Assembly (NCBI GenBank): GCA_001820685.1
Contig: MHQP01000009.1
Coordinates: forward strand, 808 to 64,807
Direction of reading: 5' to 3'
DNA from: Candidatus Sungbacteria bacterium RIFCSPLOWO2_01_FULL_47_32
GTDB lineage: Bacteria > Patescibacteriota > Minisyncoccia > Sungbacterales > GWA2-42-14
Length of the DNA: 64,000 nt
Shown: in pieces, positions 371 to 59,103 of the stretch
How positions within the stretch are numbered: the first letter of the stretch is position 1
How the letters are laid out: every line of letters begins with the position of its first letter
The notes under the pieces: generated by a model
What the model saw: only the letters and a program-made list of their open reading frames with translations
What the model was told of the DNA's origin: nothing
The model's database searches: none
Made by a program: the position numbers and the translations under genes

Positions 371-509
371 ATGATAAGAGTATCCCAGAATATTGCATTT
401 TTGAAGAGGGAACAAGAGGCGATGAATGGAATAGAAAAATGCTTGAAATCATGAAAAAAATGTGATAGTGTACGCCCACTGTTGTTCCTTTAAAAAAGAG
501 GCATTGCTC

Positions 510-5599: not shown

Positions 5600-8500
5600 A
5601 TGCCGGACGATTCAAAACAACTAAACCTGCCCAAGCGCGAGGAAGAGGTGCTCAAGCTATGGGAGACAGAGGGCACATTTGAGAGGAGCCTTGAGAAAAC
5701 GAAAAAAGGAAAGCTTTTTACGTTCTTCGAAGGGCCTCCAACAGCAAATGCCGCTCCAGGCATCCACCACCTTGAATCGCGCGCCTTTAAGGACATTATT
5801 CCTCGCTATAAAACTATGCGCGGTTTTTTTGTTCCAAGAAAAGCAGGCTGGGACACGCACGGGCTTCCGGTCGAAATTCAGGTTGAAAAAGCCCTCGGCC
5901 TCAAGACAAAAAAAGATATTGAAGCATACGGTATCGCGGCATTCAACGAAAAATGCCGGGAGTCCGTGTGGCAATTCAAAGAAGCATGGGAAAAATCAAC
6001 CAAGCGAATCGGATTTTGGCTTGACCTTAAACAACCATATATAACTTACCAATCGGAATATATGGAAAGCCTATGGTGGATAATCAAAGAGATATGGAAA
6101 AAAGGACTATTGTATCAGGACTTCAAGGTAATTCCGTGGTGCTCCCGGTGCGGTACGGGGCTTTCAACGCATGAGCTGGGACAGCCCGGAGCGTATCGTT
6201 CGGTCAAAGAAAATTCCGTTTTTGTGAAGTTAAAAATAATGACCACGGGGCACACGAACGAATATCTGCTCGTGTGGACGACGACACCGTGGACGCTTTC
6301 CGCGAACGTTGCGGTCGCGGTCAATCCAAAAATAGATTACACAAAATTCAAGATTGGGGGCGAATACGTTTGGTCTGCCACACCGCCTCCGTACGGGCAG
6401 GGGGAGGAGATTGGGGTAATTGAAAAAGTTTCGGGGAGGTCTCTCCTTGGAATAATCTACGAACCGCTTTACCGGATTCCGAAAGAATATTCTCTCGGCG
6501 GCACTACCGAATACTCCGTTATCGGAGGAGATTTTGTTTCGACGGAAGACGGAACGGGCATGGTGCACATAGCGCCTGCGTTTGGGGATGAAGATATGAT
6601 TGCGGCAAAAAAAACATGGGGAGAAAAGTATCCGATATTCCATACCGTCAACCTCGACGGTACGATGAAGCGTGGCCTTGTTGGAGAAGGAAAATTCGCA
6701 AAAGATGCTGATGCTGAAATTGTGGAAGAACTTAAAAAGAGAGGGGTGGTGTACAAGGTAAAACCGTTCGAACATGATTATCCGTTTTGCTGGAGGTGTG
6801 GGACCGCCCTTCTCTATTTTGCAAAAAACGCCTGGTGGATAAAAATGTCGGGCTTCAAGGAAAAACTTCTTCAAAACAACGCGACAATCAACTGGGTTCC
6901 GGAACACATTAAAGAAGGGCGGTTCGGAGAATTCTTGCGAGAAGTGCGCGACTGGGCTTTTTCTCGCGACCGGTTTTGGGGAACTCCGCTTCCTGTGTGG
7001 CAATGCGAAGGATGCGGATATCAAGACATCATAGGCTCTTTTGGCGAACTTGATGCGAAAAGCGGGGGCGCTAAGAACAAATATTTGGTCATGCGGCACG
7101 GAGAATCAGAGTCAAATATACAAAATATCTGTGGGGCCAAGGATGGCTATTCGCTGACGCTCAAGGGCAGAACAGAAGTTGAAAAAGCGATTCGAATTCT
7201 GAAGAAGGAAAACATTGATGCCATTTTTGCTTCTCCGATAACCCGAACCAAAGAAACCGCAGAGATTGTGGGAGAATTCCTCGGAAAGACAATTCGCTAC
7301 GACGCGCGGCTTCGCGAGATTAACGTCGGAGACTTCGAAGGGCGGCTTGATCACCTGTATCATAGTTACTTTTCTTCGCATATCGAAAAATTCACCAAAC
7401 GCCCCCCGAACGGAGAAACGTTAAGTGATCTTCGCAGACGCATGATGGATTTTATTGAAGAAATCGAAAAAAAATTTTCAGGCAAAAAAATTCTTATCGT
7501 GAGCCATGAATATCCGATTTGGATGCTTGCAAGCGGCTCTCTCGGCTGGTCGAATGAAGCGACCATTACCGCGCACACCGGCACGAGGGCCGATGATTTC
7601 ATTGATTTTGCCGAGGTACAAGAGCTTTTGTACAAAAAATTACCGCGGGATAATACCGGCGCGGTCAACGTCCATCGGCCGTATAGTGATGAGTTTCGTT
7701 TGCCATGCCCGAAATGCAAAAAGTCGATGAAGCGCGTTTCAGAAGTCGTTGATGTGTGGTTTGACTCCGGGGCAATGCCGTTTGCACAGTCGCATTTTCC
7801 GTTTGCTTTCGAAAAAGGCTCAAAACCAAAAGAAAAACTTTTATTTCCTGCGGAATATATTTCCGAGGCGGTTGACCAGACGCGCGGGTGGTTTTATACG
7901 CTTCTTGCCGTCTCCACACTCCTTGGAAAAGGGGCGCCTTATAAAAATGTTGTTTCTTTGGGGCATGTTCTCGATAAAAATGGACAGAAAATGTCGAAGT
8001 CAAAAGAGAATGTCGTGCGCCCGGACGAAATGATACAAAAATACGGAGCCGACACAATCCGGTGGTATTTCTATTCCATCAACGCTCCGGGCGAGCCGAA
8101 GAAATTCGACGAGAAGGATCTGCAAAACAAACTCCGTGGATTTTTAGGGACACTCTGGAATAGTTTCATTCTTTTCGAAACATATGTTTCGAAAACAAAA
8201 CCCTCAGCGTCGAGCAAAAATATTCTTGACCGGTGGATAGTTGCGCGAACAAACGAGCTTGTTTCAACTGTTTCAAAAGGCCTGGATACTTACGATATTA
8301 CGGGAGCCGCGCGCGCGATAGAAGAGTTCACGATAGGCGATTTTTCAAACTGGTATTTGCGGCGTTCCCGAAGGCGTTTCCAGAAGTCTAAAAGCGCCGT
8401 CGAAAAAAAAGCAGCTACCGAAACAACCGCGTATGTTCTTCTTACTCTTGCAAAACTTACCGCTCCATTCATGCCCTTTGTGGCGGAAATTTTATGGCAG

Positions 8501-9085
8501 GGATTAAGAAAACACTGCGGATTCAAAGAAAAATCCGTGCATCTTTCCGGGTGGCCAAAGACGGAGTTAAGAGTTAAGAATGAAGAATTAAGAATTATTA
8601 AGGAGATGAAAATGGTGCGTGGGGTGGTTGCGGAAGCGCTGAAACTTCGGGCGAGTGTCGGAATAAAGGTGAGACAGCCTCTCGCTTCACTTCAATTCCC
8701 AATTTCCAAACTCAAATTTCAAAACACGAAAGAACTTTTCAGCCTAATAAGAGAAGAAGTAAATGTAAAAGAAGTTATTGACGGAAAAGAATTGAAACTC
8801 GATACCGTGATAACTCCCGAACTGAAAGAAGAAGGGGTTGCCAGGGAGGTTATACGAAACCTTCAGGAGATGAGAAAAGATCTTGGGCTTGAGCCGAAAA
8901 ACAAGATTCGCGCGCAGTTTTCATCTTCTTCGGAGCTTGAAGAGCTACTCTCGCGGCGGGAAAAGTTCATCAAAGAAGAGGCCGGAGCTACCCTCCTGGT
9001 TTTCGGCGGAAAAAAAGTATTTAAAGGAGAACACGAAGTTTTGGTAGACGGCGTGACACTTTGGATTGGGATTAGCCGGCAGTAA
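5600..9085 (+). CDS. ileS: isoleucyl-tRNA synthetase, type 2, with an inserted histidine-phosphatase (PGAM-like) domain
   Basis: [32 protein letters not shown] aligns with type-2 IleS PPTANG.PHVGH...KD..[20 protein letters not shown]. CP1 editing domain. [24 protein letters not shown]. KMSKS. Residues ~485-690 ([13 protein letters not shown] ... ILIVSHEYP) are a histidine phosphatase domain inserted between QCEGCG and CPKC. Confidence 0.9.
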   Translation: [1161 protein letters not shown]

Positions 9086-11771: not shown

Positions 11772-13121
11772 ATGGAAGAAAAAGCAAAAAAACAGAAAAC
11801 GAATGAGCCTGTGTCTCCTCTTATGGAGCGTCTCGTAAGTCTCGCAAAGCGCCGAGGCTTTATTTATGCAGGCTCCGAAATTTATGGAGGGCTTGGCGGA
11901 ACATGGGACTACGGTCCTCTCGGGGTTGAGCTTAAAAATAATATCAAAAAAGAGTGGTGGAAGAGATTTGTTTCATACAGGCGAGACATGTACGGCATTG
12001 ATTCTTCCATTCTCATGAACTCAAAAGTATGGGAAGCATCGGGGCATCTGAAAAATTTCGTCGACCCGATGGTGGATTGCAAGAAGTGCAAAGGAAGATT
12101 TCGGGCTGATAAAATTGATGTTTCAAGCGGCTGTCCTACGTGCGGAGCAAAAGACTTTACCGAAGCGCGCCCGTTCAATATGATGTTCAAAACGCACGCG
12201 GGGCCGGTTGAAGATTCCGGTGCTGAGGTTTATTTGCGTCCGGAAACCGCGCAGGGCATGTTCGTCAATTTTAAGAACGTCATTGATTCATTCCATCCGA
12301 AGCTCCCGTTCGGCATAGCACAGATAGGGAAAGCATTCAGAAATGAAATTACTCCCGGAAATTTTATTTTTAGGACGCGCGAATTTGAGCAGATGGAAAT
12401 AGAATATTTTATAAAACCTGGCGGATGGGAGAGTCAGTTTGATTATTGGCTCGGCGAAATGAGAAAATGGACGGAGTTTCTCGGAATTGCGAAAGGCGTT
12501 TCGGAGCGGGAGGTTTCTGCCGAAGACCGCGCGCATTACTCGAAGCGCACGATTGATATTGATTTCGAATTTCCGTTCGGGAAAGAAGAACTCTACGGCC
12601 TTGCGTATCGAACCGACTTTGACCTTAAAAACCATATAGAAAAATCCGGCATTGACCTTGTGTACTATAATGAAGAAACAAAAAAAAAGCTCGTACCGCA
12701 CGTTATTGAGCCGACATTCGGGGTAGACAGAACGATGCTCGCGGTTCTTCTCAATTCGTTCGCGGAAGAAGAGGTAAAAGAAGGCGAGATACGCGCGGTT
12801 TTGAAATTTCCCGCGCGTCTTGCTCCCGTAAAAGTCGCGGTTTTCCCGCTTGTCTCAAACAAAGAAAATATCCTTGCCAAGGCCGAAGAAGTGCATGGCA
12901 GGCTGAAAGAATCAATAGACAGCGTACGATGGGACGATATCGGAAACATCGGAAAGAGATATCGAAGACAAGACGAGATAGGAACACCGTGGTGCGTTAC
13001 TGTGGACTATCAAACACTTGAGGACGGAACAGTTACGGTGCGGGATAGGGATACAATGAAGCAAGAGCGAATTGCGGCGGGTGAACTAGCCGGCTATTTT
13101 CACAAGAAGTTAAGTCAATAA
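11772..13121 (+). CDS. glyQS: glycyl-tRNA synthetase (alpha2 class II type)
   Basis: MERLVSLAKRRGFIYAGSEIYGGLGGTWDYGPLG is the class II GlyRS N-terminus. Anticodon-binding domain at the C-terminus. Met 26 of the track ORF. Confidence 0.9.
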   Translation: MEEKAKKQKTNEPVSPLMERLVSLAKRRGFIYAGSEIYGGLGGTWDYGPLGVELKNNIKKEWWKRFVSYRRDMYGIDSSILMNSKVWEASGHLKNFVDPMVDCKKCKGRFRADKIDVSSGCPTCGAKDFTEARPFNMMFKTHAGPVEDSGAEVYLRPETAQGMFVNFKNVIDSFHPKLPFGIAQIGKAFRNEITPGNFIFRTREFEQMEIEYFIKPGGWESQFDYWLGEMRKWTEFLGIAKGVSEREVSAEDRAHYSKRTIDIDFEFPFGKEELYGLAYRTDFDLKNHIEKSGIDLVYYNEETKKKLVPHVIEPTFGVDRTMLAVLLNSFAEEEVKEGEIRAVLKFPARLAPVKVAVFPLVSNKENILAKAEEVHGRLKESIDSVRWDDIGNIGKRYRRQDEIGTPWCVTVDYQTLEDGTVTVRDRDTMKQERIAAGELAGYFHKKLSQ

Positions 13122-43308: not shown

Positions 43309-43623
43309 TTAATGGACAGGAACGCCTCCGGTGCAATAGTACTCTCTATAGATCGGATATCCGCCACCGGAATACCTCATGTATTCGCGGAAGATGAACC
43401 TGGGGTTTGCGTTCCGGAAGATATATCCTCCCTGAATCGTTATATCAACCTTGGGCTCTCCAACCGGTTTGCCCCAAAGGGTTGGTTGGTATGAGTAAAT
43501 ATGCGTAATCTCATAACACGGTGACTGATGTCTCGACCGGTCTTTCCGGACCGTGAGCTCAATAGTGCCGCAACCCGCAAGAATTGTAAGACAGAATGCA
43601 AAAGCAAGAGCTTTTTTAAGCAT
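43309..43623 (-). CDS. small lipoprotein (lipobox LAGC)
   Basis: MLKKALAFAFCLTILAGC. Confidence 0.55.
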   Translation of the reverse strand: MLKKALAFAFCLTILAGCGTIELTVRKDRSRHQSPCYEITHIYSYQPTLWGKPVGEPKVDITIQGGYIFRNANPRFIFREYMRYSGGGYPIYREYYCTGGVPVH

Positions 43624-49336: not shown

Positions 49337-49683
49337 TTTTTTTGTTTTTAGGGCCGGAAAATAACTCTTTTCCGAGTGTATCTTCGTACTATGAGTATAA
49401 GCTATTTCCGTTTTTAATTCAAATCGCTTGTCCACATGGGGGAGGAGAAGACTCATTATCATGCTTTTGGGCGGACGGCGCGAGAAACTTAGCTTCTTTG
49501 TGTAACTTTGATTATCGACGTTTCACCGTTTTTAGAATATAATGGAAGCATTAACCTTTTCTGCTCAAGGCGGAAAATGTGCTCTATTCTATGTAAAAAA
49601 CCGGGATAGTCTGAAAAATTTCTTACTCGGCAGTCCAAGACAAGCATTCAAGAATTAAACGGAACAGGCGTGTTCAAAAAATT

Positions 49684-52600
49684 ATGAATGGAAGGCATCA
49701 TAAAAACACCGATGCTGTCGGTGATCCAATTCATCGCATGTCAAAGAGCCATCCTGAAAAAATTGCGGTCGTCTTGCCCGCGCACAATGAAGCAGCGCAT
49801 ATTGGCGCTGTTCTTCGTGCTCTTGCCGCTTACCCCGTTATTCCCATAGTCGTCGACGACGCATCCGGCGATGGTACTGCAACTCGCGCCGGTTCTCATA
49901 CAAATGTTGCTGTCGTAACCCGCACGTATCGGGGGGGCAAAGAGGCTGCTCTTAAAGACGGACTTCATGAGGCGCTTCGCCGTGGCGTCGACGCAGTGGT
50001 CTTTATGGATGCCGACGGACAGCATGATCCGGCCGACATCGAAAAGTTTCTTACTCTCTGGAGAAGCGAGCATCCGGATGTAATTATTGGAATGCGAAAT
50101 TTGAGAAGTCGCGTAATGCCTCTTTCGCGAAAAGTGTGGAACCGTCTTATAAGCCTGCTCATCGGATTTTTTGCCGAAAAAATCTTTTCTGATACTCAAT
50201 GCGGATTTCGTCTTTTTTCTCGCCGTGCCGCCGAAAAACTTTCATTCGGTGCATCCGGGTATGCGTTTGAAACTGAGAGCATATACGAAATGCTTGAACA
50301 AGGCTTTGAGGTACGCGTGGTTCCCATAAAAACCATATATAATAAAGTCGGCAAAGAATCACTTTTCGAAATAAGCCGGGCTATGCATCTTTTTTATTAT
50401 GCCGTGACGCGTGGCATGCGCTGTTCGGTAAAACGCTCTTTTCAGATTTTCCATCAGGTAGCAAAGCCGGCGCTCATCCTTCTTTTTATTTTTCTTTCGT
50501 TTCTGCTTTTTGTGGAGTCATATATGGCGGCGACCAATGAGCCACAAGCCTCTCGCAATGCCCTCTCTGCGGAATATCTTGCGGCATTTACCTGGTTAAA
50601 AAAACACACCGAACCCAGCGCGATTATTATGGCACACTGGTATCGCGGCAACCAGATCGTCGCATTCGCAGACCGGAGAGTTGTTTCTACGACGAAAGTG
50701 TACCCCACGGAGGCTACAGATGTTGCCGAACGGCACCGTGATATTGCAAAGTTTTTTCTTGCGGGAGACGAAACAAAAGCGCTTTCAGTTGCCACAAAAT
50801 ACAGCGCGTCATATGTTTTCGTAAGCAAAGACTTCGAGGCGTGGCTCTGCAATAACATCTCCCGGTGTGATGTTAGTCTCGACGGGCGGACGCTTTCCCG
50901 CCGGGCAATGCGGCAAACTTTCGCTGGCCGCATGGCGCAAGGAGATGAGTTCACGCATTTTAAAAAAGTCTGGAATTCCCCGCACATTGCGATATATAAA
51001 ATAACCGATGCGGACCAGTCTATTCCTCACCATGTTCGGGAGACAGCGCTTTTTATTGCCCGCTCGACGATTGAGGCCGCACTCAACGGTAAAACGCTCA
51101 CACCACAAGACTTTCAAAAGCTTATTCGCGCACGGGGGCTGGATGAGGCGTTTTCCGAAAAAATGGATGTTGATGTTTCTGCGTGGTCAAACCAACGCTT
51201 TCGCGCCTCACGCCTTGGGATTGGTGGGACATTACTAGGAAACATTGTTCTTGCCGCGCACGCCACTGCATTTGATAACCGCTTTTACTCGCTTGAAAAA
51301 AGCGAGGTCGAAGCAATGCAGGTTGAAGTCGTATTCATGAAAGATGACCCATATCCTCTTGAGCCATACGCGCTTAAAACAGCCTCTATCGATCCTTTTA
51401 AGGGCTATGCGCTTGAATATAAAAATAATAGGGTCATCTTTCTTCCGGAGGTTTTTAATGTTCATCAGTACCACAATCTTGCGGAATTTTTAGGAAGTCT
51501 GTGCAGGAAGGGAGGGTTTGCGGCATCGTGCTATCGTGAGCCGGATGCGCGCGTAACTGCGTTTAGCGTGGAAGATATCATTGAGTCAAAAGATAAAAAA
51601 ACCATTCTTGAGCTCGCGGGGCCCTTGGTTGATGCTTTGGCCGAATACTCCGATACCCGTCTCATGGCGCGTCTCGGACTTGCCGCCCGGTGGCTTTTGG
51701 CAAACAGCGACGCCGAAGGGCGCATGACATTTACTATTAATCCGCTTGACGGCACCGAGTCCAGAAATTTTGACGTGATCAGAAATGCTCTCGGATCACA
51801 AAGCCTGGCCGCATTCTATCGAATAAGCGGCGATAAAAACTTTTTGGAAAGCGCACAAAAAAGCAGAAATTATATCGTATCAAAAAGAGAGTTTCTCCGG
51901 AGCAATTACCCGAGCGAAAAGCTTCCCACCGGTATTTTGAATTTTCTTATTCTTGCCGACCTTGAACTTTTTGACATAACACACAACGAAACTTATAAAA
52001 CTTCGGCGGTTATGTGGACAAACATGCTGTGGTCTTTACGATCCGGAAGAGAGGACTTTTCTTTGGTGTTTTTTCCAGATGGGAAATCTGCCGGCGCTGA
52101 AGGAAGAAGAAGTGACCCAATCGTTCGTTATCAAGCGCTCGCTGCTCTTGCAAAATCAATGCGTGTGACCGGAAGTTCTGCGCGCCTTAAGGACCTTGAA
52201 TTGCTTGCATCAATGTACCAGAAGGAGTTTCAGCAGGGCCGGATACTGAAAGAAGGCAAACTCTCTATCGCAAAAAATGCCTGGCTCGTCAATGCGTTTG
52301 CGGAAATGTATCGTCTTACGAAAAAACGTGAATATGCCGATTTTGCCTTTGACGTTGCGGACTGGCTGCTTGGTTACCAGCTTTTGGGAGGGGCCGGGAA
52401 GGAGGGTGCGTTCACCAACACTCCGGCCGATGACGATACGTATTACGCGCGCGGCACAGGAAAAACGACGGAAGCGCTCGCCGACGCGTATGCTTTGGCA
52501 AAAGAGACGGGAGACGCACGGAGAGAAAAAATATACGCCGAATCTCTCCGTTCTGCGTTTGGCTGGCTTATGAGTCTTCAGCTGACAGACGAAAACAGCT

Positions 52601-52734
52601 TCTGGGTTTCCCCCTCGGCGCTTTCACGTTCTATTGGCGGCCTGCGCCACGATGTAAAAAATCCTAAATTATGGATTGACAGCGCTTCGCATTTTCTTCT
52701 CGGCGGCTCCATGTATTTGAAATCCTTAAAATAG
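49684..52734 (+). CDS. polyprenyl-phosphate glycosyltransferase (GT2, GtrB/DPM1/Ppm1-like) fused to 2-3 TM helices and a ~740 aa extracytoplasmic domain
   Basis: N-terminal KIAVVLPAHNE. VVDDASGDGT. VVFMDADGQHDP (DxD). QCGFRLFSRR. TM helices at ~240-290. C-terminal region with (alpha/alpha)-repeat-like helix pairs (ADWLLGYQLLGGAGKEGAF, FGWLMSLQLTDENSFW), preceded by WYRGNQI...DRR...YVFV. Confidence 0.8.
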   Translation: MNGRHHKNTDAVGDPIHRMSKSHPEKIAVVLPAHNEAAHIGAVLRALAAYPVIPIVVDDASGDGTATRAGSHTNVAVVTRTYRGGKEAALKDGLHEALRRGVDAVVFMDADGQHDPADIEKFLTLWRSEHPDVIIGMRNLRSRVMPLSRKVWNRLISLLIGFFAEKIFSDTQCGFRLFSRRAAEKLSFGASGYAFETESIYEMLEQGFEVRVVPIKTIYNKVGKESLFEISRAMHLFYYAVTRGMRCSVKRSFQIFHQVAKPALILLFIFLSFLLFVESYMAATNEPQASRNALSAEYLAAFTWLKKHTEPSAIIMAHWYRGNQIVAFADRRVVSTTKVYPTEATDVAERHRDIAKFFLAGDETKALSVATKYSASYVFVSKDFEAWLCNNISRCDVSLDGRTLSRRAMRQTFAGRMAQGDEFTHFKKVWNSPHIAIYKITDADQSIPHHVRETALFIARSTIEAALNGKTLTPQDFQKLIRARGLDEAFSEKMDVDVSAWSNQRFRASRLGIGGTLLGNIVLAAHATAFDNRFYSLEKSEVEAMQVEVVFMKDDPYPLEPYALKTASIDPFKGYALEYKNNRVIFLPEVFNVHQYHNLAEFLGSLCRKGGFAASCYREPDARVTAFSVEDIIESKDKKTILELAGPLVDALAEYSDTRLMARLGLAARWLLANSDAEGRMTFTINPLDGTESRNFDVIRNALGSQSLAAFYRISGDKNFLESAQKSRNYIVSKREFLRSNYPSEKLPTGILNFLILADLELFDITHNETYKTSAVMWTNMLWSLRSGREDFSLVFFPDGKSAGAEGRRSDPIVRYQALAALAKSMRVTGSSARLKDLELLASMYQKEFQQGRILKEGKLSIAKNAWLVNAFAEMYRLTKKREYADFAFDVADWLLGYQLLGGAGKEGAFTNTPADDDTYYARGTGKTTEALADAYALAKETGDARREKIYAESLRSAFGWLMSLQLTDENSFWVSPSALSRSIGGLRHDVKNPKLWIDSASHFLLGGSMYLKSLK

Positions 52735-52742
52735 TATTTCGC

Positions 52743-54545
52743 ATGAACAATGTCCTGCTAAAAAAAAGACGGACTCTCGTTGCGGCAGGGTTGCTTGTTT
52801 TTATTTTCATGGGAGGGCTCTATGTGCGAACCATTCGCACGGGACATTACCTCCCATATCACACTGTTGCCAGCTACTACTATGATAAATCAAACCGGCT
52901 GAATAACGACGGGGTTTTCCCCAAAACGGATATATGGGATTTTGCCCCGGACGCAAGGATTGATAATGCTCCTCCGGGACTGGCCTATATAACGGTCTTT
53001 CTCTACCGGGTGTTCGGCGGCAGAACAGCATTTTATGATTTTGCCCAAACGTTTCCTCTTTTCATATATGCGGCATGGTTCATCATGCTCGTTCTTTCTT
53101 TTAGAAAGCTTTTTGGCGCGCTCATAACGCTCGGAGGAGCAGCACTTTTTGCATTTCTTCCCGTCTCAGCTTTTTTTACAACACGCGGCCACTATCTGGA
53201 AGAGACGCTCGGCGCGTTACTTATTTTCATCATGGTGCATTGTATTATCCGAATTCCCGAGGAAAAAGAACGGCGGCAACGACACATTCTTAGTATTTCT
53301 CTTCTTCTTTCTACGGCACTTTTCGCGCTCACCTGGCAGCAATATATCGTGGTACTGGGTGCTGCGGGAGCACTCATAGCACTCTGGGCCTTTAAAAAAA
53401 GCGTCGCATCAGCCGGTCTTCTTGCCCTCGCCATCGCGGGCGGGGTCTTTCTTGCCGAGGCTTGGTGTCGTTTGGCAGGACTCGGATATTCGCCGCTTAT
53501 GATGGCATGGGAGTTTATCTATGCCACTATTCACCACAATGATCCGGCACTCTATGCCGCGATGCGTCGAACGGACTGGGCAAATCCCGGTCTCAAAGAT
53601 CTATATAGTTATTTTGGCGCGCTCGGCATACTTGCGGGTATCCTCGGGGTTTTCTCCGTACTTACCGATCTAAAAAACTCACGGAAGCAAGTAATCGGGA
53701 TATTTGCCGCCGCAGGGCTTGTGGTACTTGCCGCATTTGTAAAGGACCGGTTTTTAGCATTGACCCTTTTTTTATATCTCTTCGCGCTTGGCCTTGATGT
53801 TCTTATCCATCCTGAAATGATACGCCGCGCCTTCAAATCTTTTTTTTCGTTACCGGGAGTGGCGCGGTCTCTTTGTATCGTGGGCGCCCATAAAAAAGAA
53901 CTCACGGCCGGAGTGTGCGTTCTTATTGCCAGTGGAATAGTGTTCACTCTATTCTCCGATACCATTCTTTCGAAGACGCTGTATCGAAATAAACCGCTTC
54001 CTATAATCACTGTTTCATCCGGCAATACGCCGCTGAAGGTCGGCGGCTCGTATAAGGTCGTTCTTACTCTTAAAAATACCGGCGGAAGGCCTCTTTCCGG
54101 AGATAGTGTTTTCGGCGGCCTGCACGTGGAGATTGAAAACGCAATCGTTAAAAACATTCGCGCGTATTCGCGTTTCACCAAATCGGAGGCGTCACTTAAA
54201 AACTTCGCCTGGGCGGGAGACAAATTTTTCTTTGAAACGAAATATTATTTTCTCAATTCGAGCGAGGATGGGGGGGTTACGTTCGTGGTCGAACCATATG
54301 CCCTGCCGGTAACAATTTATTACCGCGGATGGCTGCCGGGGTTTTGCACGAAAGAAGAGCGAGGTACGGCGCTTAACGATCTCCTGCCTGCTTGGAAGAG
54401 AGATGACAAAGGCGGCTGGCGAAACGAATCCTGTATCATGCGCGCGCCGGAGACCCCGGAAAACGGAGCAACCCTTTGCCGCATACCTGTTATGGCGGCT
54501 CACCAAGCAATTCAGGACTTTCCGTGTTTTGAGAAGCAATTGTAA
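52743..54545 (+). CDS. GT-C fold glycosyltransferase, PMT_2/ArnT-like (GT39/GT83-like)
   Basis: First-loop motif TDIWDFAPDARIDNAPPGLAYITVFLYRVFGG matches the D/E...PPL-Y....FG pattern of ArnT/PMT_2. ~11 TM helices. ~200 aa C-terminal soluble domain. Starts 9 nt after the GT2 gene. Confidence 0.65.
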   Translation: MNNVLLKKRRTLVAAGLLVFIFMGGLYVRTIRTGHYLPYHTVASYYYDKSNRLNNDGVFPKTDIWDFAPDARIDNAPPGLAYITVFLYRVFGGRTAFYDFAQTFPLFIYAAWFIMLVLSFRKLFGALITLGGAALFAFLPVSAFFTTRGHYLEETLGALLIFIMVHCIIRIPEEKERRQRHILSISLLLSTALFALTWQQYIVVLGAAGALIALWAFKKSVASAGLLALAIAGGVFLAEAWCRLAGLGYSPLMMAWEFIYATIHHNDPALYAAMRRTDWANPGLKDLYSYFGALGILAGILGVFSVLTDLKNSRKQVIGIFAAAGLVVLAAFVKDRFLALTLFLYLFALGLDVLIHPEMIRRAFKSFFSLPGVARSLCIVGAHKKELTAGVCVLIASGIVFTLFSDTILSKTLYRNKPLPIITVSSGNTPLKVGGSYKVVLTLKNTGGRPLSGDSVFGGLHVEIENAIVKNIRAYSRFTKSEASLKNFAWAGDKFFFETKYYFLNSSEDGGVTFVVEPYALPVTIYYRGWLPGFCTKEERGTALNDLLPAWKRDDKGGWRNESCIMRAPETPENGATLCRIPVMAAHQAIQDFPCFEKQL

Positions 54546-54573
54546 AGTAGCGGGAACTGATACGCTATCGAAA

Positions 54574-54599
54574 GGTCCGCCCCGAGGCGGATCTTTTTT
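54574..54599 (+). terminator. intrinsic terminator
   Basis: tccgccccgaggcgga followed by tctttttt. Confidence 0.55.
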
Positions 54600-54664
54600 G
54601 TATCTTCGGCAAGTAGTGTGGTCTATTGCGTATTATATCGATAAATTCCGCCTGTTGTTTATCT

Positions 54665-56125
54665 TTAAAACTTTTCAACAAATCCGGCGCCCTCTCCGAA
54701 ATAAATCACTCCCCGCTCTCCCCGGTTAAGGCGCTGCACAATGTCGCCCCCGGGAGAGATTATGGCAGAGATGCCGGTCTTATAAGCCCGGAAAAGCCAT
54801 ACGTGGGCCTCGGTCGCGCGAAGCTGTGCCATTCTAAGCGTACCGCGAAAAATGAAATTCGATAGAAATGGACGGTCGCTTCCCGAAACAACAAGAATGG
54901 GTGCGCCCATGCGCTTGATGCGATTCAGGAACTTCGGTGAAAATGGCTCATTACAGATGGCTGCGGCAAATATGCCGTCCGGCGTCAGAAGACCATTTTT
55001 TTCTGCGGCATCAGCCGGAACAAATGGCGTTATCGAATAACCGACGGGTTTATCAAAAAGATACTTATAAAAACCGCCGGGGCGGTAGTCAGAAACCGGG
55101 AACAATATCTCTTTTTTGTACTTTCCGACGACCTCGCCGTGTTGTAACGCGAACATTGTCTGAAGAATAATACCACCCTCCGTTTTTACCGGAATGTAGA
55201 ATATAACAGTCGCATCCGTTTCAATAAGTGTTTTGCCGAGCGTTTGCGTCCAAAAATCTTTTGAAAGCTTTGACTCCGCCGTTACAGGCGAGACGATCTG
55301 CGCCGAAAAAATGATCGTTTGAACGTTTCGCGTAAGCGCCTTTTTGATAAGCGGACCGTAATTCTCATCACGTTCTATCGGAAAAGTATCCGGAAATTTC
55401 ACATTGGGTTGAATAATAGCAACAGATGGTAAACCGGCCGGATATTCCGCTGAAATTCGCTCATGCAACATAACACCATAGAGGAAAAAAATGATAAGCC
55501 CGAATAACGAGAGGCTAATGTAAAAAAGCGGGATTCGCGTAAGCGGACGAAATACACAGCACGCATAGAGAATGCTCCCTGAAAACACTGTTATAAAACT
55601 TAAGAGGGGAACACCCAAAAATATCCCCGCCAGTTCCCGAAAGAGCCCTATGGCAACGAGCGGAATACCCACAAACCACCAATCAAATCCGAAGGTGACC
55701 ACGCGTATGACAAGCTCTGACACGACCCAAAGCGCCGGAAAGACAAACAGAATAAGCGGCTCATGCGGAATTTTTCTTGCCACCAATTTAAGCGCTACAA
55801 ACATGATACCAAAAACACCGCCAAAGATACCCGCGGCAACCGCGAATATGCCCAAAACTCTGGCAATAAGCTTGGGGTCGAAAGCAGTTGCGGCGCCAAA
55901 CACTTCGGATTCAGCATCGAGAAGCGGCGGCAATCCTATAAGGAGGAAAAGAGTTCCGACAAACGCGCCCCACAAAAAAACCGTAAAAACTGCCTTGGAA
56001 ACGACCATGCGCATACCGAAAAGGAGGGGTGGAAATATAAAAAACGCAAGAAACCACAGAGGTCCGCTCCAGTATGAAAGCCCAAAAAAAACCATTGAAA
56101 GAAGGAATGGAAGGAATGTGCGCAT
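54665..56125 (-). CDS. lnt: apolipoprotein N-acyltransferase
   Basis: N-terminal ~6-7 TM. C-terminal CN-hydrolase domain with IIQPNV (Glu), K, and AAICNEPF (catalytic Cys). Confidence 0.75.
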   Translation of the reverse strand: MRTFLPFLLSMVFFGLSYWSGPLWFLAFFIFPPLLFGMRMVVSKAVFTVFLWGAFVGTLFLLIGLPPLLDAESEVFGAATAFDPKLIARVLGIFAVAAGIFGGVFGIMFVALKLVARKIPHEPLILFVFPALWVVSELVIRVVTFGFDWWFVGIPLVAIGLFRELAGIFLGVPLLSFITVFSGSILYACCVFRPLTRIPLFYISLSLFGLIIFFLYGVMLHERISAEYPAGLPSVAIIQPNVKFPDTFPIERDENYGPLIKKALTRNVQTIIFSAQIVSPVTAESKLSKDFWTQTLGKTLIETDATVIFYIPVKTEGGIILQTMFALQHGEVVGKYKKEILFPVSDYRPGGFYKYLFDKPVGYSITPFVPADAAEKNGLLTPDGIFAAAICNEPFSPKFLNRIKRMGAPILVVSGSDRPFLSNFIFRGTLRMAQLRATEAHVWLFRAYKTGISAIISPGGDIVQRLNRGERGVIYFGEGAGFVEKF

Positions 56126-56223
56126 GAGATTATACCATCATTATAGTATGGGTTTCCGTTTCTTAGAAGAAAGATAAAATAAAGCCTTTCGCATTAAGCA
56201 TACATTCAAAGATTTTCTGATTA

Positions 56224-56251
56224 AAGAAGATCCCCTAGAGGGGATCTTCTT
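56224..56251. terminator. perfect palindromic hairpin aagaagatcccc-taga-ggggatcttctt
   Basis: Between the 3' end of the surface-protein gene and the lnt start. Confidence 0.5.
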
Positions 56252-56268
56252 CTTTAATTGCTTTTGTA

Positions 56269-58035
56269 TTATTTTCCGCCTTCTCCCTCGCCACCGCCAC
56301 CGCCCGCTTCGGCACCTGCATCTTCATCTTCAGCTTCAGCACCACCGCCCGCTTCGGCACCTGCATTTTCATCTTCAGCTTCAGCACCACCGCCCGCTTC
56401 GGCACCTGCATTTTCATCTTCAGCGTCGGCTCCTCCAGGGGCTCCGGGACCTGTATCAGGGCCGGCATTTTCAACATCTGAACCATCTGCAGCTTCGGCA
56501 CCTGCATTTTCATCTTCAGCGTCGGCTCCTCCAGGGGCTCCGGGACCTGTATCAGGACCGGCATTACCGCCGGAAACTTCAGGGGCGTTAGCTCCGACCT
56601 CAACTTCAGCAACACTTCCAGGGGCGCCGGGACCGGTATCAGGGCCGGGATTTCCAACATCCACATCCACCCCCACATCCATGTCAATACCTATATCCAC
56701 ATCTATGTCAATACCTATATCCACATCAGTAGTAACGTCTACGGTAGGAGTAAGGCCAAAGAAACTTGCGATTGCATTTATTGCATTGATGGCCATCTGA
56801 CCAATTGTGCTTAAAAGTCCGCCGAACATGCCATCAATCGCATTGCTTATCATGCCATTCGTTACTGCGTCTACAACTGCAACAACGGCCATCGCCATCA
56901 TTCCTATTGGGCCAGTAACTGCCGTAATTCCGAGGCCGACAACGCCCAATCCTACCGACGCAGGAGTAGCGCCATTGCCTATTCCTATAGCACCCGCAAC
57001 GGCACCTCCTATTCCGGTAGCTGCAGGCCCGCCACCTCCACTTCCGCCTCCATCTCCGCTTGTCCCGCCTGACGTTCCTCCTGATGTGCCTCCATCTGTA
57101 CTGCCGCTCCCATCAGACATTCCGCCCGTAGTTCCTCCGGAGTCTGTTGATGGACTGCCAGCATCAGAACCTCCGCCTGATGTCGTATCGCTGGTTGGTG
57201 AAGAGCATGAAAGCGTTCCGCAGCTCTCGCAAGATCCCCCAACGTAAGTGCAGTCGGCAGGCGGGGGAGCACAGGAGACACACGATGACGGAGGGGGAGG
57301 CGAAGATGTTGGCGAAGATGTTGGAGCTAACGCAAGACCCGGTTCAACGCTCCATCCGGTGATTTTGTTATCATATGATATTTTCCACCATGTAAAACCA
57401 TCCGCGACCATAGGTCCGTCGATAACTGTGCCCAGAGAACCGGAGGGTTCATTGCCGATAAGTGTTCCGGAGGACGAAGGAGAAGAGCGGACATTCAAAA
57501 CTTCTGTTGTAATGACCCTGTCTCCGATAGAAAACATCGGAGTGATGATTTCAGGAGTCGGTGTTGTCGGAGGCGAACTCGGAGCGGGGGGTAAAGAAGC
57601 GGGAACTACCTTAACGTTAAATGTGGTCTGCGCGGCGAGCCCGTTTCCGGTTGCGTATGCCGTGATCGCATATATTCCGAGGGGGGTTGTTGGCGTCGTA
57701 GTTATAATAATCGTCGTACCGCATGGAGGGATGCAGGAAGAAGGGGCAAATAAAAACGATGAGTCCGAAGGAAGTCCGGCTGCCGAAAAGGCAACCTTTT
57801 CTTCCGCAGCCGGGCTTATAAAAGCGTTAAGCGTATTCGCGGCACTTTGTCCTTGGGCAATAGTTACGTCTCCTCCGTTTTGAAGGAGGAATGCGATGGA
57901 TCCGGGCGGCGTTGACGTGGAGGTTTGAGCGATAACGAAGCCAGCCGGGAAACTTAGAATTGCCAGGTGGGCGATAAGCGCAAACGAAATTGTTTTTCCC
58001 ACAAGGGAAGAGGCTCTTTGTGAAAATATTTTCAT
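56269..58035 (-). CDS. large secreted Ser/Thr/Gly-rich repeat protein with an SH3b-like domain (589 aa)
   Basis: Signal peptide MKIFSQRASSLVGKTISFALIAHLAILSFPAGFVIAQ (Met 31 of the track ORF). SH3b-like GDRVITTEVLNVRSSPSSSGTLIG...WWKISYD...GWS. Cys cluster CVSCAPPPADCTYVGGSCESCGTLSC. Gly-zipper hydrophobic segment. (D-hydrophobic)n run DVDIGIDIDVDIGIDMDVGVDVDVG. Acidic tandem repeats GPDTGPGAPGGADAEDENAGAEA. Confidence 0.7.
   Translation of the reverse strand: MKIFSQRASSLVGKTISFALIAHLAILSFPAGFVIAQTSTSTPPGSIAFLLQNGGDVTIAQGQSAANTLNAFISPAAEEKVAFSAAGLPSDSSFLFAPSSCIPPCGTTIIITTTPTTPLGIYAITAYATGNGLAAQTTFNVKVVPASLPPAPSSPPTTPTPEIITPMFSIGDRVITTEVLNVRSSPSSSGTLIGNEPSGSLGTVIDGPMVADGFTWWKISYDNKITGWSVEPGLALAPTSSPTSSPPPPSSCVSCAPPPADCTYVGGSCESCGTLSCSSPTSDTTSGGGSDAGSPSTDSGGTTGGMSDGSGSTDGGTSGGTSGGTSGDGGGSGGGGPAATGIGGAVAGAIGIGNGATPASVGLGVVGLGITAVTGPIGMMAMAVVAVVDAVTNGMISNAIDGMFGGLLSTIGQMAINAINAIASFFGLTPTVDVTTDVDIGIDIDVDIGIDMDVGVDVDVGNPGPDTGPGAPGSVAEVEVGANAPEVSGGNAGPDTGPGAPGGADAEDENAGAEAADGSDVENAGPDTGPGAPGGADAEDENAGAEAGGGAEAEDENAGAEAGGGAEAEDEDAGAEAGGGGGEGEGGK
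56290..56730. repeat. in-frame tandem DNA repeats (units ~45 and ~96 bp) inside the surface-protein gene
   Basis: Seen directly: repeated caccaccgcccgcttcggcacctgcatyttcatcttcagcttcag and ...gcgtcggctcctccaggggctccgggacctgtatcaggrccggcatt... Confidence 0.8.
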
Positions 58036-58115: not shown

Positions 58116-58146
58116 AAAAATGCAAAAACCCGCCTCAAGGCGGGTT
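58116..58146 (-). terminator. intrinsic terminator after yvcK
   Basis: aacccgccttgaggcgggtt followed by tttgcattttt on the minus strand. Confidence 0.55.
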
Positions 58147-59103
58147 TTAAAGCAAAGAAACAAGAACAGAGGCAAGCTTTTTGGGGTCATGCCTCAAAAA
58201 CCCTTTTTCTCGGAGGAAATCTCCGAATATTGGCGTGGGTTTTTGGGACATACCTTCCGATCCCACAAACTCCGAGCGCTCGGCGGAATATTTCGTAAGA
58301 CGAGCGAGGGAGGGCCGGCGCGTGTTGACGACGGCATAGTCGAGCACACGCTTTCCCAGGTAGGCTTCAATAGTTGACACGAATTGCGATGCGTCAAACT
58401 TATTCGTTTCGCCGGACTTTGTCATAAGATTCACAACATACGCTTTTTTTGCTTTTGAGCTTCGTATCGCTTCCGGAATGCCGGAAACGATAAGATTCGG
58501 AACGATGCTTGTGTAAAGGTCTCCGGGGCCGATGACGATAAGGTCTGCCGTGCGTATCTTCTCAACGGCCCGTTTATTTGCGCGCGCCTTCGGCGAAAGG
58601 AAAACGCGCTTGATTTTAAGTTCCGGGTCATGCTTCGGAACGTCGATATTCGTTTCTCCCATGACTGTTCTGCCGTTCTCAAGGAGTGCTCCGAGTTTTA
58701 CGTTTGAAAGCGTAACCGGCAATACGTGCCCGCGGATGTTCAGAAGCCTTCCTGCTTCGTACACCGCGTCTTCAAAACTTCCGGTAAGCCGCTCAAGGGC
58801 TGTTAGCATGATGTTGCCGAATGTGTGTCCCTTGAGGTTTCCTTGTTCAAAGCGGTAGTTGAAAAGATCCGCGACAAGACGGTCTTCGGTATGAGAAAGC
58901 GCTACCAAAACTCTCCGCACGTCTCCCGGAGGAAGTATGCCGAATTCTTCTCTCAAAACTCCGGATGATCCTCCGTCGTCAGCCATGGAAACGACCGCGG
59001 AAAGTTCCACCGGATATGCGCGGAGTCCGGAAAGCACGGTAAACACACCGGTGCCTCCGCCGATGACGACTATCTTTTTTGTTTTATCCGCCGCTGTTTT
59101 CAT
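58147..59103 (-). CDS. yvcK: YvcK / CofD-like (UPF0052) gluconeogenesis-factor family protein
   Basis: KIVVIGGGTGVFTVLSGL. MADDGGSSG. Confidence 0.8.
   Translation of the reverse strand: MKTAADKTKKIVVIGGGTGVFTVLSGLRAYPVELSAVVSMADDGGSSGVLREEFGILPPGDVRRVLVALSHTEDRLVADLFNYRFEQGNLKGHTFGNIMLTALERLTGSFEDAVYEAGRLLNIRGHVLPVTLSNVKLGALLENGRTVMGETNIDVPKHDPELKIKRVFLSPKARANKRAVEKIRTADLIVIGPGDLYTSIVPNLIVSGIPEAIRSSKAKKAYVVNLMTKSGETNKFDASQFVSTIEAYLGKRVLDYAVVNTRRPSLARLTKYSAERSEFVGSEGMSQKPTPIFGDFLREKGFLRHDPKKLASVLVSLL

Follow-up and report, generated by a model that had tools for sequence, protein, structure and literature searches.

Does a run of four neighboring genes (A to D) in a 64,000-nt stretch of DNA (the window) form one module for protein glycosylation and lipoprotein maturation? 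The original prediction read A and B as a Ppm1-like GT2 and a PMT/ArnT-like GT-C that O-mannosylate protein D and lipoproteins, and C as an Lnt that N-acylates lipoproteins, as in the actinobacterial Ppm1-Lnt (Ppm2) and Pmt system. All four open reading frames (ORFs) are present as predicted, and the proposed CPR host was confirmed by 100% protein matches bearing the names Candidatus Sungbacteria or Parcubacteria group. The analysis, which is computational only, points to a different reading: A and B would together constitute a two-protein, polyprenyl-phosphate-sugar-dependent glycosylation machine acting outside the cytoplasm, with a split and rearranged STT3/AglB-type GT-C (probability of about 0.6). 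In that case, a candidate-phyla bacterium would carry a sugar-lipid synthase GT2 joined in one protein with half of a split STT3 relative.

Layout of the locus

Genes A and B lie in close tandem with B downstream, as predicted, although the gap from the A stop to the B start is 8 nt rather than 9 nt. Gene C is convergent with B, and terminator-like hairpins stand between A-B, C and D (Table 1), which look, from the sequence, like separate transcription units; the hairpin between D and C suggests that these two genes are transcribed apart, although they are a conserved pair. The promoter-like site upstream of A is weak evidence, since such sites are in total no more frequent than shuffling predicts. 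The A-B operon (49684-54545) is probably the conserved functional unit.

Table 1. Positions of the genes, domains and signals of the locus within the window
Feature	Position	Strand	Basis or details
Promoter-like site ahead of gene A (TCGACG-17-TATAAT)	49515..49543	+	Consensus scan, 10/12 matches; weak
Gene A, 1016 aa; GT2, one TM helix, STT3-core-like domain, AMMECR1, (α/α)6 barrel	49684..52734	+	ORF, homologues, domain searches
A GT2 domain, residues ~25-250, polyprenyl-phosphate glycosyltransferase type, cytoplasmic	49756..50433	+	Pfam, profile vs PDB, Foldseek
A TM helix, residues 259-281, sole TM helix of A	50458..50526	+	Hydropathy peak 2.56
A core domain, residues ~285-445, extracytoplasmic, homologous to STT3/AglB/PglB core (WWDYG)	50536..51018	+	hhalign, profile vs PDB, HMM
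HWYRG motif of A (in place of WWDYG), residues 318-322	50635-50649	+	Alignment
A AMMECR1 domain, residues ~450-640, predicted extracytoplasmic	51031..51603	+	Pfam, profile vs PDB
A (α/α)6 barrel, residues ~655-1016, resembles carbohydrate-active enzymes	51646..52734	+	Foldseek, profile vs PDB
Gene B, 600 aa	52743-54545	+	ORF
B GT-C membrane domain, residues 1-413, ~11 TM, homologous to STT3/AglB N-terminal domain	52743..53981	+	Profile search, hhalign, AF2/Foldseek
B Cys-rich extracytoplasmic Ig-like beta-sandwich, residues ~418-600	53994..54545	+	
Terminator-like hairpin closing A-B operon	54570..54597	+	12-bp stem then T run, 25 nt past B stop
Gene C, 486 aa; divergent Lnt-like, LNT_N membrane domain and CN_hydrolase, without canonical catalytic Glu	54665..56125	-	HMMs, alignments
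Palindromic hairpin between D stop and C start	56224..56251	.	12-bp stem
Gene D, 588 aa; signal peptide, Ig-like region, SH3-like domain, S/T/P/G-rich linkers, Gly-zipper hydrophobic block, acidic repeat tail ending GGK	56269..58035	-	Sequence, composition, Pfam
Tandem 45/96-nt repeats in D	56297-56550		

Gene B and the STT3 family

The predicted coupling of a GT2 to a GT-C directly downstream was borne out, but the family assigned to the GT-C was not. No match of B to PMT_2 (PF13231) was found at E <= 0.1, nor any PMT Pfam match; the first-loop motif previously taken as a PMT_2/ArnT signature belongs to an STT3-like EL1, and the family-level affinity is to STT3, all of which speaks against a PMT/ArnT-family enzyme. 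A profile of close B homologues retrieved about 60 family clusters and then distant matches, 54 of 55 of which carried Pfam STT3. Residues 7-356 aligned with residues 15-425 of an STT3 template in hhalign (99.8% probability, E 8e-29), and the AF2 model (pLDDT 89.8) gave Foldseek matches of which the best 19 were all OST catalytic subunits. Conserved residues of B comprise D63, P77, P78, Y151, E154, W198, R276 and K334, of which D63, E154 and K334 are invariant acidic or basic residues at OST-equivalent positions. Opposite the first catalytic Asp of OSTs, B has an Ala that is not conserved.

Gene A and the missing half

The GT2 was correctly recognized as a polyprenyl-phosphate sugar synthase type, but it accounts for only the first quarter of A, a multidomain protein whose remainder had been overlooked and whose architecture is common to seven full-length homologues (40-43% identity). 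The domain is of the DPMS/GtrB/ArnC class: it matches PF00535 (E 2e-19), its closest solved relatives are DPMS (5mlz, 1e-18), GtrB (7e-16) and ArnC (1e-13) in profile searches against the PDB and ArnC (2.7e-8), GtrB (3e-7) and DPMS (7e-7) in Foldseek, and it carries the motifs DADGQ and D.Q.GFR, with D109, D111, Q172, G174, F175 and R176 invariant in the homologue alignment.

The TM helix that follows matches the last TM helix of STT3/AglB, and the hhalign alignment of A residues 244-435 with template residues 433-659 (98.0% probability, E 2.7e-13) starts inside it and pairs HWFRG with WWDYG. The core profile matched STT3A (E 5e-4) and the C-terminal domains of AglB (2e-3 and 4e-3) in the PDB, and an HMM of the A core (A2) matched the core of at least 15 genuine OSTs; the AF2 model cannot be relied on for this domain (pLDDT < 50 over residues 275-446), and the homology in this part comes from sequence profiles. 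A and B cover contiguous, non-overlapping stretches of one STT3 template, and therefore resemble an STT3-type transferase that has been split and rearranged.

The AMMECR1 domain matches PF01871 (AmmeMemoRadiSam system protein A) above the gathering cutoff (E 3.6e-11, 43.3 bits, cutoff 25) and 1zq7 in the PDB (7e-9). Compared with the AMMECR1 family, it is set apart by its fusion to glycosylation domains, by the lack of a Memo or radical-SAM partner in the window and by a predicted extracytoplasmic location, to which the sole TM helix of A, the invariant Cys pairs and the signal peptides of related fusion proteins point. The barrel (model pLDDT mostly 80-96) resembles the GH88 unsaturated glucuronyl hydrolase 3wiw (5.9e-6) and cellobiose 2-epimerase (7.7e-6) in Foldseek, and glucuronyl C5-epimerase (5e-6) and GH76 (1e-3) in profile searches against the PDB.

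Conservation of the A-B pair

The B membrane domain and the A TM helix and core are co-encoded in all 11 distinct loci examined, the window included, in genes that usually overlap or lie a few nt apart. The parts are shuffled between polypeptides in six differing fusion/fission arrangements: the window and most loci have GT2-TM-core-AMMECR1-barrel followed by B, whereas the GT2 is its own gene in L102, the protein has GT2-TM-core only in L093, TM-core alone adjoins a B-barrel fusion in L103, P0032 and P0035, and beta-sandwich-TM-core-AMMECR1-barrel is followed by the B TM domain only in L091 and P0086. The permuted relatives in L091 are on an archaeal-looking contig. From synteny and fusions, we infer a putative physical A-B complex. 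DsbA, DsbD or thioredoxin genes adjoin the pair in L001, L004, L086, L088, L089 and L091 which, together with the single TM helix and the invariant Cys pairs in the A and B families, argues for an extracytoplasmic location.

These homologies could be taken to place A-B with AglB and PglB as a canonical N-oligosaccharyltransferase, passing a lipid-linked glycan to the Asn of N-X-S/T. In euryarchaea, AglB draws on monophosphate-linked donors whose assembly begins with an AglJ-type GT2, and in haloarchaea DPMS-like AglJ or AglD charges a monophosphate lipid carrier for the STT3-family/GT-C enzymes AglB or AglS. AglJ is the second-best NCBIfam match of A (71.5 bits, far under the AglJ cutoff of 325), although the host here is bacterial (CPR). 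We nevertheless regard this as highly improbable for several reasons: (i) the counterpart of WWDYG in the A family is HWYRG, EWTQG or TWPYG, none of which keeps the Asp of WWD; (ii) the first catalytic Asp is not conserved in B; (iii) no further glycan-assembly glycosyltransferases, such as those of the Agl pathway, were found near A-B; and (iv) D has no N-X-S/T sequon in its sequence, and the small secreted acidic peptides that recur beside A-B in relatives share no consistent one. The best reading is a non-canonical acceptor rather than a sequon, and the two missing Asp residues imply that catalysis, if any, differs in detail; A-B may even be an inactive scaffold. A-B further differs from GT66 enzymes (STT3, AglB and PglB) in its division between two proteins, the C-terminal half coming first in the operon and being joined to the GT2, in having about 11 TM helices in B rather than 13, in the extra beta-sandwich, AMMECR1 and barrel domains, and in its presumed donor, which would be a monosaccharide on polyprenyl monophosphate instead of an oligosaccharide on a diphosphate.

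Proposed mechanism and acceptor

In the proposed mechanism, (i) the GT2 of A would load polyprenyl phosphate, on the inner side of the membrane, with a monosaccharide taken from a nucleotide sugar, (ii) a flippase would flip the lipid-linked sugar, (iii) the B membrane domain, completed by the TM helix and core of A, would pass the sugar to an extracytoplasmic acceptor, and (iv) the ecto-module of AMMECR1, barrel and beta-sandwich would bind or process that acceptor. We favor a secreted acidic protein or peptide as the acceptor, with a glycan nearly as likely. To our knowledge, protein acceptors are the only ones otherwise known for the STT3 lineage, and the recurrent acidic peptides and Dsb genes likewise point to peptide or protein substrates.

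The same chemistry could instead be directed at a cell-envelope glycan or glycolipid (peptidoglycan, a teichoic-acid-like polymer or an S-layer glycan), with the barrel binding the polymer. The relatives of the barrel are all sugar-binding and the sequon-binding Asp of WWD is gone from A, while no polymer-synthesis genes were found near A-B; as a complete reading we hold this to be possible but rather doubtful. Its parallels are three-component systems (GtrA/GtrB/Gtr*, ArnC/ArnE-F/ArnT and CsbB/GtcA/YfhO), which mostly modify glycans and in which the polyprenyl-P-sugar product of a GtrB/ArnC-type GT2 is used outside the cytoplasm by a neighboring GT-C (PMC11127046). A-B shares the GT2 beside a GT-C gene but differs from these systems in three respects: a scan of window ORFs turned up no flippase gene, the GT-C belongs to the STT3 lineage and not to Gtr*/ArnT/YfhO, and the synthase is covalently joined to a transferase part, AMMECR1 and the barrel.

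AMMECR1-barrel proteins also exist without any GT2 or GT-C (e.g., L098_669 and P0071), in L098 beside the accessory genes that also go with A-B (for a small peptide, a ~360-aa protein and a rhodanese), so that the ecto-module may chiefly do something other than glycosyl transfer, such as maturing acidic, Cys-containing peptides that are secreted. The STT3-like parts would then be degenerate anchors or scaffolds. The partial loss of canonical OST catalytic residues would fit, but the GT2 catalytic motifs are invariant, the GT2 is kept in 9 of the 11 loci (in L091 and L103, the portions retrieved showed none) and the OST-equivalent charged residues of B do not vary, which makes this reading unlikely.

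Genes C and D as a separate pair

Gene C has the predicted CN_hydrolase domain (54.2 bits) and matches Lnt (TIGR00546), although at 114.9 bits it falls below the curated cutoff of 132.9. Aligned with Pseudomonas aeruginosa Lnt and canonical Lnts, it keeps K338 and C391 but has Ala in the column of the WPE Glu, so that the claimed E-K-C triad is incomplete. Several lipobox lipoproteins had been expected in the window; a strict filter left a single lipobox ORF (43309-43623, LAGC). Protein D, the length of which is counted from the ATG used in the original prediction (a longer, TTG-started ORF overlaps a terminator hairpin), has the expected signal peptide and S/T/P/G-rich tracts, and an SH3_3 match (26.4 bits), but its Gly-zipper hydrophobic block and acidic repeat tail make it more than a plain secreted repeat protein.

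The one-module reading with which we began draws on the Ppm/DPMS type of the GT2, on the adjacency of GT2, GT-C, Lnt homologue and D in the window, and on several observations in relatives: a D-like protein (L086_798) near A-B in L086, a D'-Lnt' pair 5 kb from an AMMECR1-barrel gene set in L098, and a genomic slot that holds either A-B or D'-Lnt' in L086 and L101. Against it stand a GT-C outside the PMT family, the absence of MIR domains, and a gene C that converges on B, is terminated on its own and lacks the catalytic Glu. Synteny fails as well: the Lnt-like HMM matched none of the 10 other A-B loci, and C adjoins A-B only in the window. A single O-glycosylation and lipoprotein locus is therefore improbable. 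D-like proteins, found near A-B in only 2 of the 11 loci, accompany Lnt-like genes in four genomes and stand before them in L095, L098 and L101; by this gene order, C and D are a separate conserved pair whose position beside A-B is not conserved.

Organization of the locus

The gene pair A-B, encoding a GT2-containing protein (A) and a downstream GT-C membrane protein (B), is followed by the convergent Lnt-like gene C and by D, which encodes a secreted Ser/Thr/Pro/Gly-rich protein with a glycine zipper; the coordinates of these and related features are collected in the table. Since terminator-like hairpins lie after B, between D and C, and upstream of D, the DNA looks like three separate transcription units, A-B, C, and D. 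An alternative TTG start of D gives a longer ORF that overlaps a terminator hairpin. Databases hold identical proteins, annotated as hypothetical, from MAGs of Candidatus Sungbacteria and the Parcubacteria group, bearing out the CPR origin that had been guessed. The remaining window genes are housekeeping genes (aminoacyl-tRNA synthetases, GlmS, RelA/SpoT, ParAB, SHMT, FolD, TopA, and DprA), among which a 1161-aa class I tRNA synthetase of the isoleucyl/valyl type (5600-9085) carries an unusual histidine phosphatase insertion (His_Phos_1 at 496-655, E 1e-37). The scan of window ORFs (small ORFs in part) revealed no other glycosyltransferase and no recognizable flippase of the GtrA/SMR/MATE type, and the gene lists of the related loci likewise showed no such flippase. 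Several lipobox lipoproteins had been noted in the window; with a strict filter a single ORF passed, at 43309-43623 on the minus strand (MLKKALAFAFCLTILAGC).

Features of the window and of related loci (L numbers denote contigs of relatives)
Feature	Sequence	Position	Strand	Description
Gene A	window	49684-52734	+	1016-aa ORF
GT2 domain	protein A	residues ~25-250		PF00535 at 29-186, E 2e-19
TM helix	protein A	residues 259-281		single
STT3-core-like domain	protein A	residues ~285-445		resembles STT3/AglB C-terminal core
AMMECR1 domain	protein A	residues ~450-640		PF01871, 43.3 bits (gathering cutoff 25)
(α/α)6 barrel	protein A	residues ~655-1016		nearest folds (Foldseek) GH88 glucuronyl hydrolase, cellobiose 2-epimerase
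Gene B	window	52743-54545	+	600-aa ORF, start 8 nt past A stop
Terminator-like hairpin	window	54570-54597		after B
Gene C	window	54665-56125	-	486-aa ORF, convergent with B
Terminator-like hairpin	window	56224-56251		between D and C
Gene D	window	56269-58035	-	588 aa from the ATG originally used
Terminator-like hairpin	window	58125-58148		upstream of D
D-like/Lnt-like pair	window	54665-58035		Lnt-like protein Glu-less
D-like/Lnt-like pair	L095	6504-9458		Lnt-like protein Glu-less
D-like/Lnt-like pair	L098	6131-9296		Lnt-like protein Glu-less
D-like/Lnt-like pair	L101	5575-7663		Lnt-like protein Glu-less
Rearranged A-B pair	L091	8001-11781		P0086 and 356-aa gene
Small secreted peptide	L001	14871-15203
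Small secreted peptide	L004	16608-16844
Small secreted peptide	L006	~12865-13110
Small secreted peptide	L088	9571-9807
Small secreted peptide	L089	7661-8041
Small secreted peptide	L098	16460-16720
~340-370-aa family	L001	15271-16368		with associated genes
~340-370-aa family	L004	16935-19062		with associated genes
~340-370-aa family	L088	9826-11975		with associated genes
~340-370-aa family	L089	8156-9274		with associated genes
~340-370-aa family	L098	16760-17296		with associated genes

Membrane domain of protein B

B had been taken for a PMT_2/ArnT-type GT-C transferase. Pfam and NCBIfam gave nothing useful for it: no PMT_2 or PMT match appeared in B at E <= 0.1 or in six close homologues at E <= 1, and one homologue (43% identity) carries a Pfam STT3 match. 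A phmmer search of the PDB with B found no match, and the profile of the six homologues reached only STT3A there (E 0.2). The STT3 signal appeared only when this profile was searched against 1.84 billion representative proteins, which returned about 60 clusters of the family, trailed by a set of distant matches. Of 55 distant matches sampled, 54 carry Pfam STT3, 35 STT3-PglB_core, and 16 an AglB_core-like domain, and their consensus contains WWDYGYW. Aligned with this set by hhalign, the B family matched over residues 7-356 of B (99.8%, E 8e-29), and B possesses an N-terminal multi-TM GT-C domain homologous to PF02516. The AF2 model of B, built from a 33-sequence alignment (pLDDT 89.8), pointed the same way, its top 19 Foldseek matches in the PDB all being catalytic subunits of oligosaccharyltransferases (OSTs), namely, STT3A (8.6e-10), AglB (9.5e-9), yeast Stt3, STT3B, and PglB; ArnT followed only at 4e-4, and no PMT was among the PDB matches. 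Having failed both the PMT/ArnT Pfam and the structural-neighbor tests, identification as a PMT-type O-mannosyltransferase was rejected.

The loop signature formerly read as PMT type belongs to the external loop 1 of STT3-type enzymes, where the invariant D63 of B falls on the second conserved Asp of OSTs and its PP(G)LAY on their "YP.G." Elsewhere, the OST counterparts are the D.E motif for "Y.EE," SWGG for "TWQQ," and the EL5 Glu for D278. Within the second acidic motif (D.D/D.E), E154 (at least 90% conserved) aligns and L152 occupies the first acidic position; the invariant W198 aligns with the Trp of SWGG. The first catalytic Asp of OSTs, in external loop 1, corresponds to the nonconserved A43, and D63 lies further along the loop. 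B lacks the WWDYG domain and ends in a Cys-rich, Ig-like beta-sandwich. A search of metagenome contigs with the six-sequence alignment recovered two loci only.

Domains of protein A

The N-terminal domain of A is a GT2 with an invariant DxD motif (D109-A-D111). With a family profile of seven full-length homologues (40 to 43% identity), the best matches among solved structures were DPMS (1e-18), GtrB (7e-16), and ArnC (1e-13), and the GT2 part of the AF2 model (pLDDT about 70 to 89) likewise found ArnC, GtrB, and DPMS as its best Foldseek matches. Together with NCBIfam, where PpgS (77.8 bits, cutoff 370) and then AglJ (71.5 bits, cutoff 325) scored best, these comparisons set the domain nearest to lipid-phosphate sugar synthases and not to processive or soluble GT2s, so the original prediction of a polyprenyl-phosphate sugar synthase type was correct. 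Since no NCBIfam equivalog cutoff was reached, the matches do not give the sugar specificity. When genome contigs were searched with the A profile, L006 was the only full-length match; the generic DADGQ pattern swamped this search, and rarity cannot be read from it.

A extends well past its GT2 domain, through a TM helix, a core-like domain, an AMMECR1 domain, and an (α/α)6 barrel. The core-like domain resembles the extracytoplasmic C-terminal domain of STT3/AglB/PglB that normally carries WWDYG; it is matched weakly by Pfam AglB_core and several OST chains in the PDB, and the family profile improves these matches (STT3A, E 5e-4; AglB C-terminal domains, 2e-3 to 4e-3). Compared profile to profile with 55 genuine STT3/AglB proteins, A matched across the TM helix and core domain (98.0% probability, E 2.7e-13), and the plain HMM of the A family matches the core of at least 15 of the 55. 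The invariant HW[FY][RD]G[HN]Q[IV] of the family falls over WWDYGYW of STT3/AglB; at this position the protein studied here reads HWYRG, the Asp is absent throughout the family, and the core-like domain sits in A, not in B. The AF2 model is of good quality in the GT2, AMMECR1, and barrel domains and unreliable over residues 275-446 (pLDDT below 50 over the core-like domain; the seven sequences used were too few), and the assignment of the core domain is therefore drawn from sequence profiles only.

The AMMECR1 segment gave no phmmer match in the PDB, and the family profile matches AMMECR1 structures at 7e-9. Sequence-profile matches of the barrel include glucuronyl C5-epimerase and GH76. The single TM helix, the invariant Cys pairs, the signal peptides on fused relatives, and the DsbA, DsbD, or thioredoxin genes that adjoin the A-B pair in six loci place all of A beyond the TM helix, by prediction, outside the cytoplasm. 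We know of no function for the AMMECR1 domain; its context here, among carbohydrate enzymes, is predicted to be extracytoplasmic.

Two putative halves of an STT3-type enzyme

On a single STT3/AglB template, B occupies positions 15-425 and A positions 433-659, two adjoining stretches with no overlap. The B membrane domain and the TM-core part of A are co-encoded in all 11 distinct loci examined (the window, L001, L004, L006, L086, L088, L089, L091, L093, L102, and L103), and both genes also occur on two short contigs; in the loci examined, the genes mostly overlap or lie a few nucleotides apart. The domains are arranged in several ways: (i) in the window and most loci, a GT2-TM-core-AMMECR1-barrel protein precedes B; (ii) in L102, a separate GT2 gene stands ahead of TM-core-AMMECR1-barrel and B; (iii) in L093, a short GT2-TM-core protein lies beside a full B; (iv) in L103, a stand-alone 181-aa TM-core protein lies beside a B-barrel fusion, the same fusion being found in P0032 and P0035; (v) in L091, the B membrane domain stands alone after a beta-sandwich-TM-core (TWPYG)-AMMECR1-barrel protein; and (vi) in P0069, P0071, and P0075, secreted proteins lacking glycosyltransferase parts, the beta-sandwich of B is joined to AMMECR1 and in some cases also to the barrel. 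The L091 contig, which looks archaeal from its Alba, form-III RuBisCO, and GGR-like genes and also encodes AMP phosphorylase, showed no GT2 within the stretch fetched. Fusion and fission in such varied forms typically mark components of a single working complex, and on these sequence grounds A and B look like two halves of one split STT3-type enzyme.

Proposed mechanism and classification

We estimate at about 0.6 the probability that A-B performs, in general terms, polyprenyl-P-sugar-dependent extracytoplasmic transfer. Such a reaction would involve several steps: (i) the GT2 of A would make a polyprenyl-P-monosaccharide at the inner face of the membrane; (ii) a flippase would carry the lipid-linked sugar across; (iii) B, completed by the TM helix and core of A, would pass the sugar to an extracytoplasmic acceptor; and (iv) the AMMECR1, barrel, and beta-sandwich module would engage that acceptor, for which a protein or peptide is slightly more likely than a glycan. 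The same logic, with lipid-sugar synthase and GT-C encoded together, applies in the three-component systems in which a synthase of the GtrB/ArnC type works with a flippase and a GT-C (PMC11127046).

A-B shares its fold lineage with STT3/AglB/PglB but differs in being divided over two polypeptides and in missing both WWDYG and the first catalytic Asp, and for these reasons a canonical N-OST was rejected. The loss of that Asp and of the Asp of WWD suggests that acceptor recognition, and perhaps the chemistry, would differ from those of N-glycosylation. As the defining features of each fail, we file A-B as a member of neither the OST nor the PMT/ArnT group. A bolder proposal, which we regard as rather unlikely in its full form, is that A-B and its relatives constitute an undescribed class of split STT3-derived transferases in CPR and at least one archaeal-looking lineage, in which the acceptor-side half, made of the last TM helix and a WWDYG-less core, would be covalently tied to the donor synthase, linking synthesis inside to transfer outside, and the AMMECR1/barrel/Ig-like module would direct non-N-linked modification, either of D-like surface proteins or of small, acidic Cys-peptides that are secreted. 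If true, this would provide the first concrete biochemical context for AMMECR1.

STT3 family members are the textbook catalysts of N-glycosylation, with bacterial examples mainly from the PglB of a few proteobacteria, and every STT3-family enzyme known to us is a single polypeptide. A split, domain-shuffled relative without the sequon-binding WWD would broaden the known roles of the fold, and fusing one transferase half to a synthase of polyprenyl-phosphate sugars would compactly couple donor supply with transfer across the membrane. Public databases name the family "hypothetical protein," "AMMECR1 domain-containing protein," or "RgtA/B/C/D-like domain-containing protein," and in the papers searched we found no description of the A-B system and no study tying STT3/AglB/PglB to Patescibacteria/CPR or AMMECR1 to bacterial glycosyltransferases. 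CPR cells rely on surface contacts with their hosts; the system, known from computation and so far from CPR bacteria and one archaeal-looking contig, offers a putative surface-modification target in the few cultivated CPR members and is relevant to glycobiologists and CPR biologists.

The Lnt-like and D-like pair

The original prediction had joined PMT-type O-glycosylation and Lnt-dependent lipoprotein maturation in one locus. The GT2 class survives from it, and the PMT identity and the inclusion of Lnt in the module do not: the HMM of the Lnt-like family matched nothing in the other 10 A-B loci, C looks like a separate transcription unit, and it pairs with D-like proteins, and Lnt was consequently rejected as a module component. 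C scores 114.9 bits against TIGR00546 (Lnt), under the curated equivalog cutoff of 132.9, with CN_hydrolase at 54.2 bits (cutoff 23.2) and LNT_N at 19.7 bits, below its cutoff of 27.1, though homologues carry LNT_N. In alignments with Pseudomonas aeruginosa Lnt and canonical Lnts, the catalytic residues K338 and C391 are invariant, and Ala or Gly takes the place of the "WPE" Glu across the CPR clade of C (FSAQI in the window), so that the E-K-C triad formerly ascribed to C is reduced to its Lys and Cys.

Ahead of the nearest homologues of C, and on their strand, a D-like protein is encoded (in L095/L097, in L098, and in L101, which is distant, but not in L100); this order, D-like and then Glu-less Lnt-like, is conserved as a pair across four CPR genomes. 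Common to the D-like proteins are a signal peptide, a stretch rich in S/T/P/G, a hydrophobic glycine-zipper block rich in Gly and Ala (48 to 52% identical to that of D in L095 and L098), and an acidic tail that ends in GGK in four of four. These proteins, and not lipobox lipoproteins, might be what the Lnt-like enzyme acts on. D contains no N-X-S/T sequon. At its 3' end (56297-56550), tandem 45/96-nt repeats, with up to 98% matches over 2.8 copies, encode its acidic "AGAEAGGGAEAEDEN" repeats, and this tract may be variable in length.

A few loose links exist between A-B and C/D, and the two may be connected functionally through D-like surface proteins, although this is not the conserved feature. 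In L086, two genes upstream of A, lies the gene for a D-like surface protein that combines SH3-like repeats with a glycine zipper. The related contigs L086 (3601-11875) and L101 (3051-7663) are flanked alike by HMA and P-type ATPase genes (69% identity), the same genomic slot being occupied by A-B in one and by a D-like/Lnt-like pair in the other, and in L098 such a pair lies 5 kb from an AMMECR1-barrel gene set.

Accessory genes and candidate acceptors

Accessory families recur downstream of A-B in L001, L004, L006, L088, and L089 and also follow the AMMECR1-barrel protein of L098, which lacks glycosyltransferase parts. One family consists of small secreted peptides of 78 to 126 aa with a TM helix, RG[VI]Y[SD]L, a signal peptidase-like site AxA|D[IVA]P, an acidic S/G/D/E tail, and usually two Cys residues; they have no consistent N-X-S/T sequon and, in their genomes, are the most obvious candidate acceptors. 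A second, of about 340 to 370 aa with a single TM helix and no Pfam domain, recurs by A-B with exported rhodanese and DsbA-like genes. Searches of the window for the small acidic peptides, the ~360-aa family, rhodanese, and DsbA found none. In L093 (1-13951), where P0057, the most distant B homologue examined, accompanies the short GT2-TM-core gene, the neighbors include Wzy_C, PqqD-like, radical SAM, nitroreductase, ScmC, and ICMT/PEMT-like genes, a hint of a setting in peptide modification.
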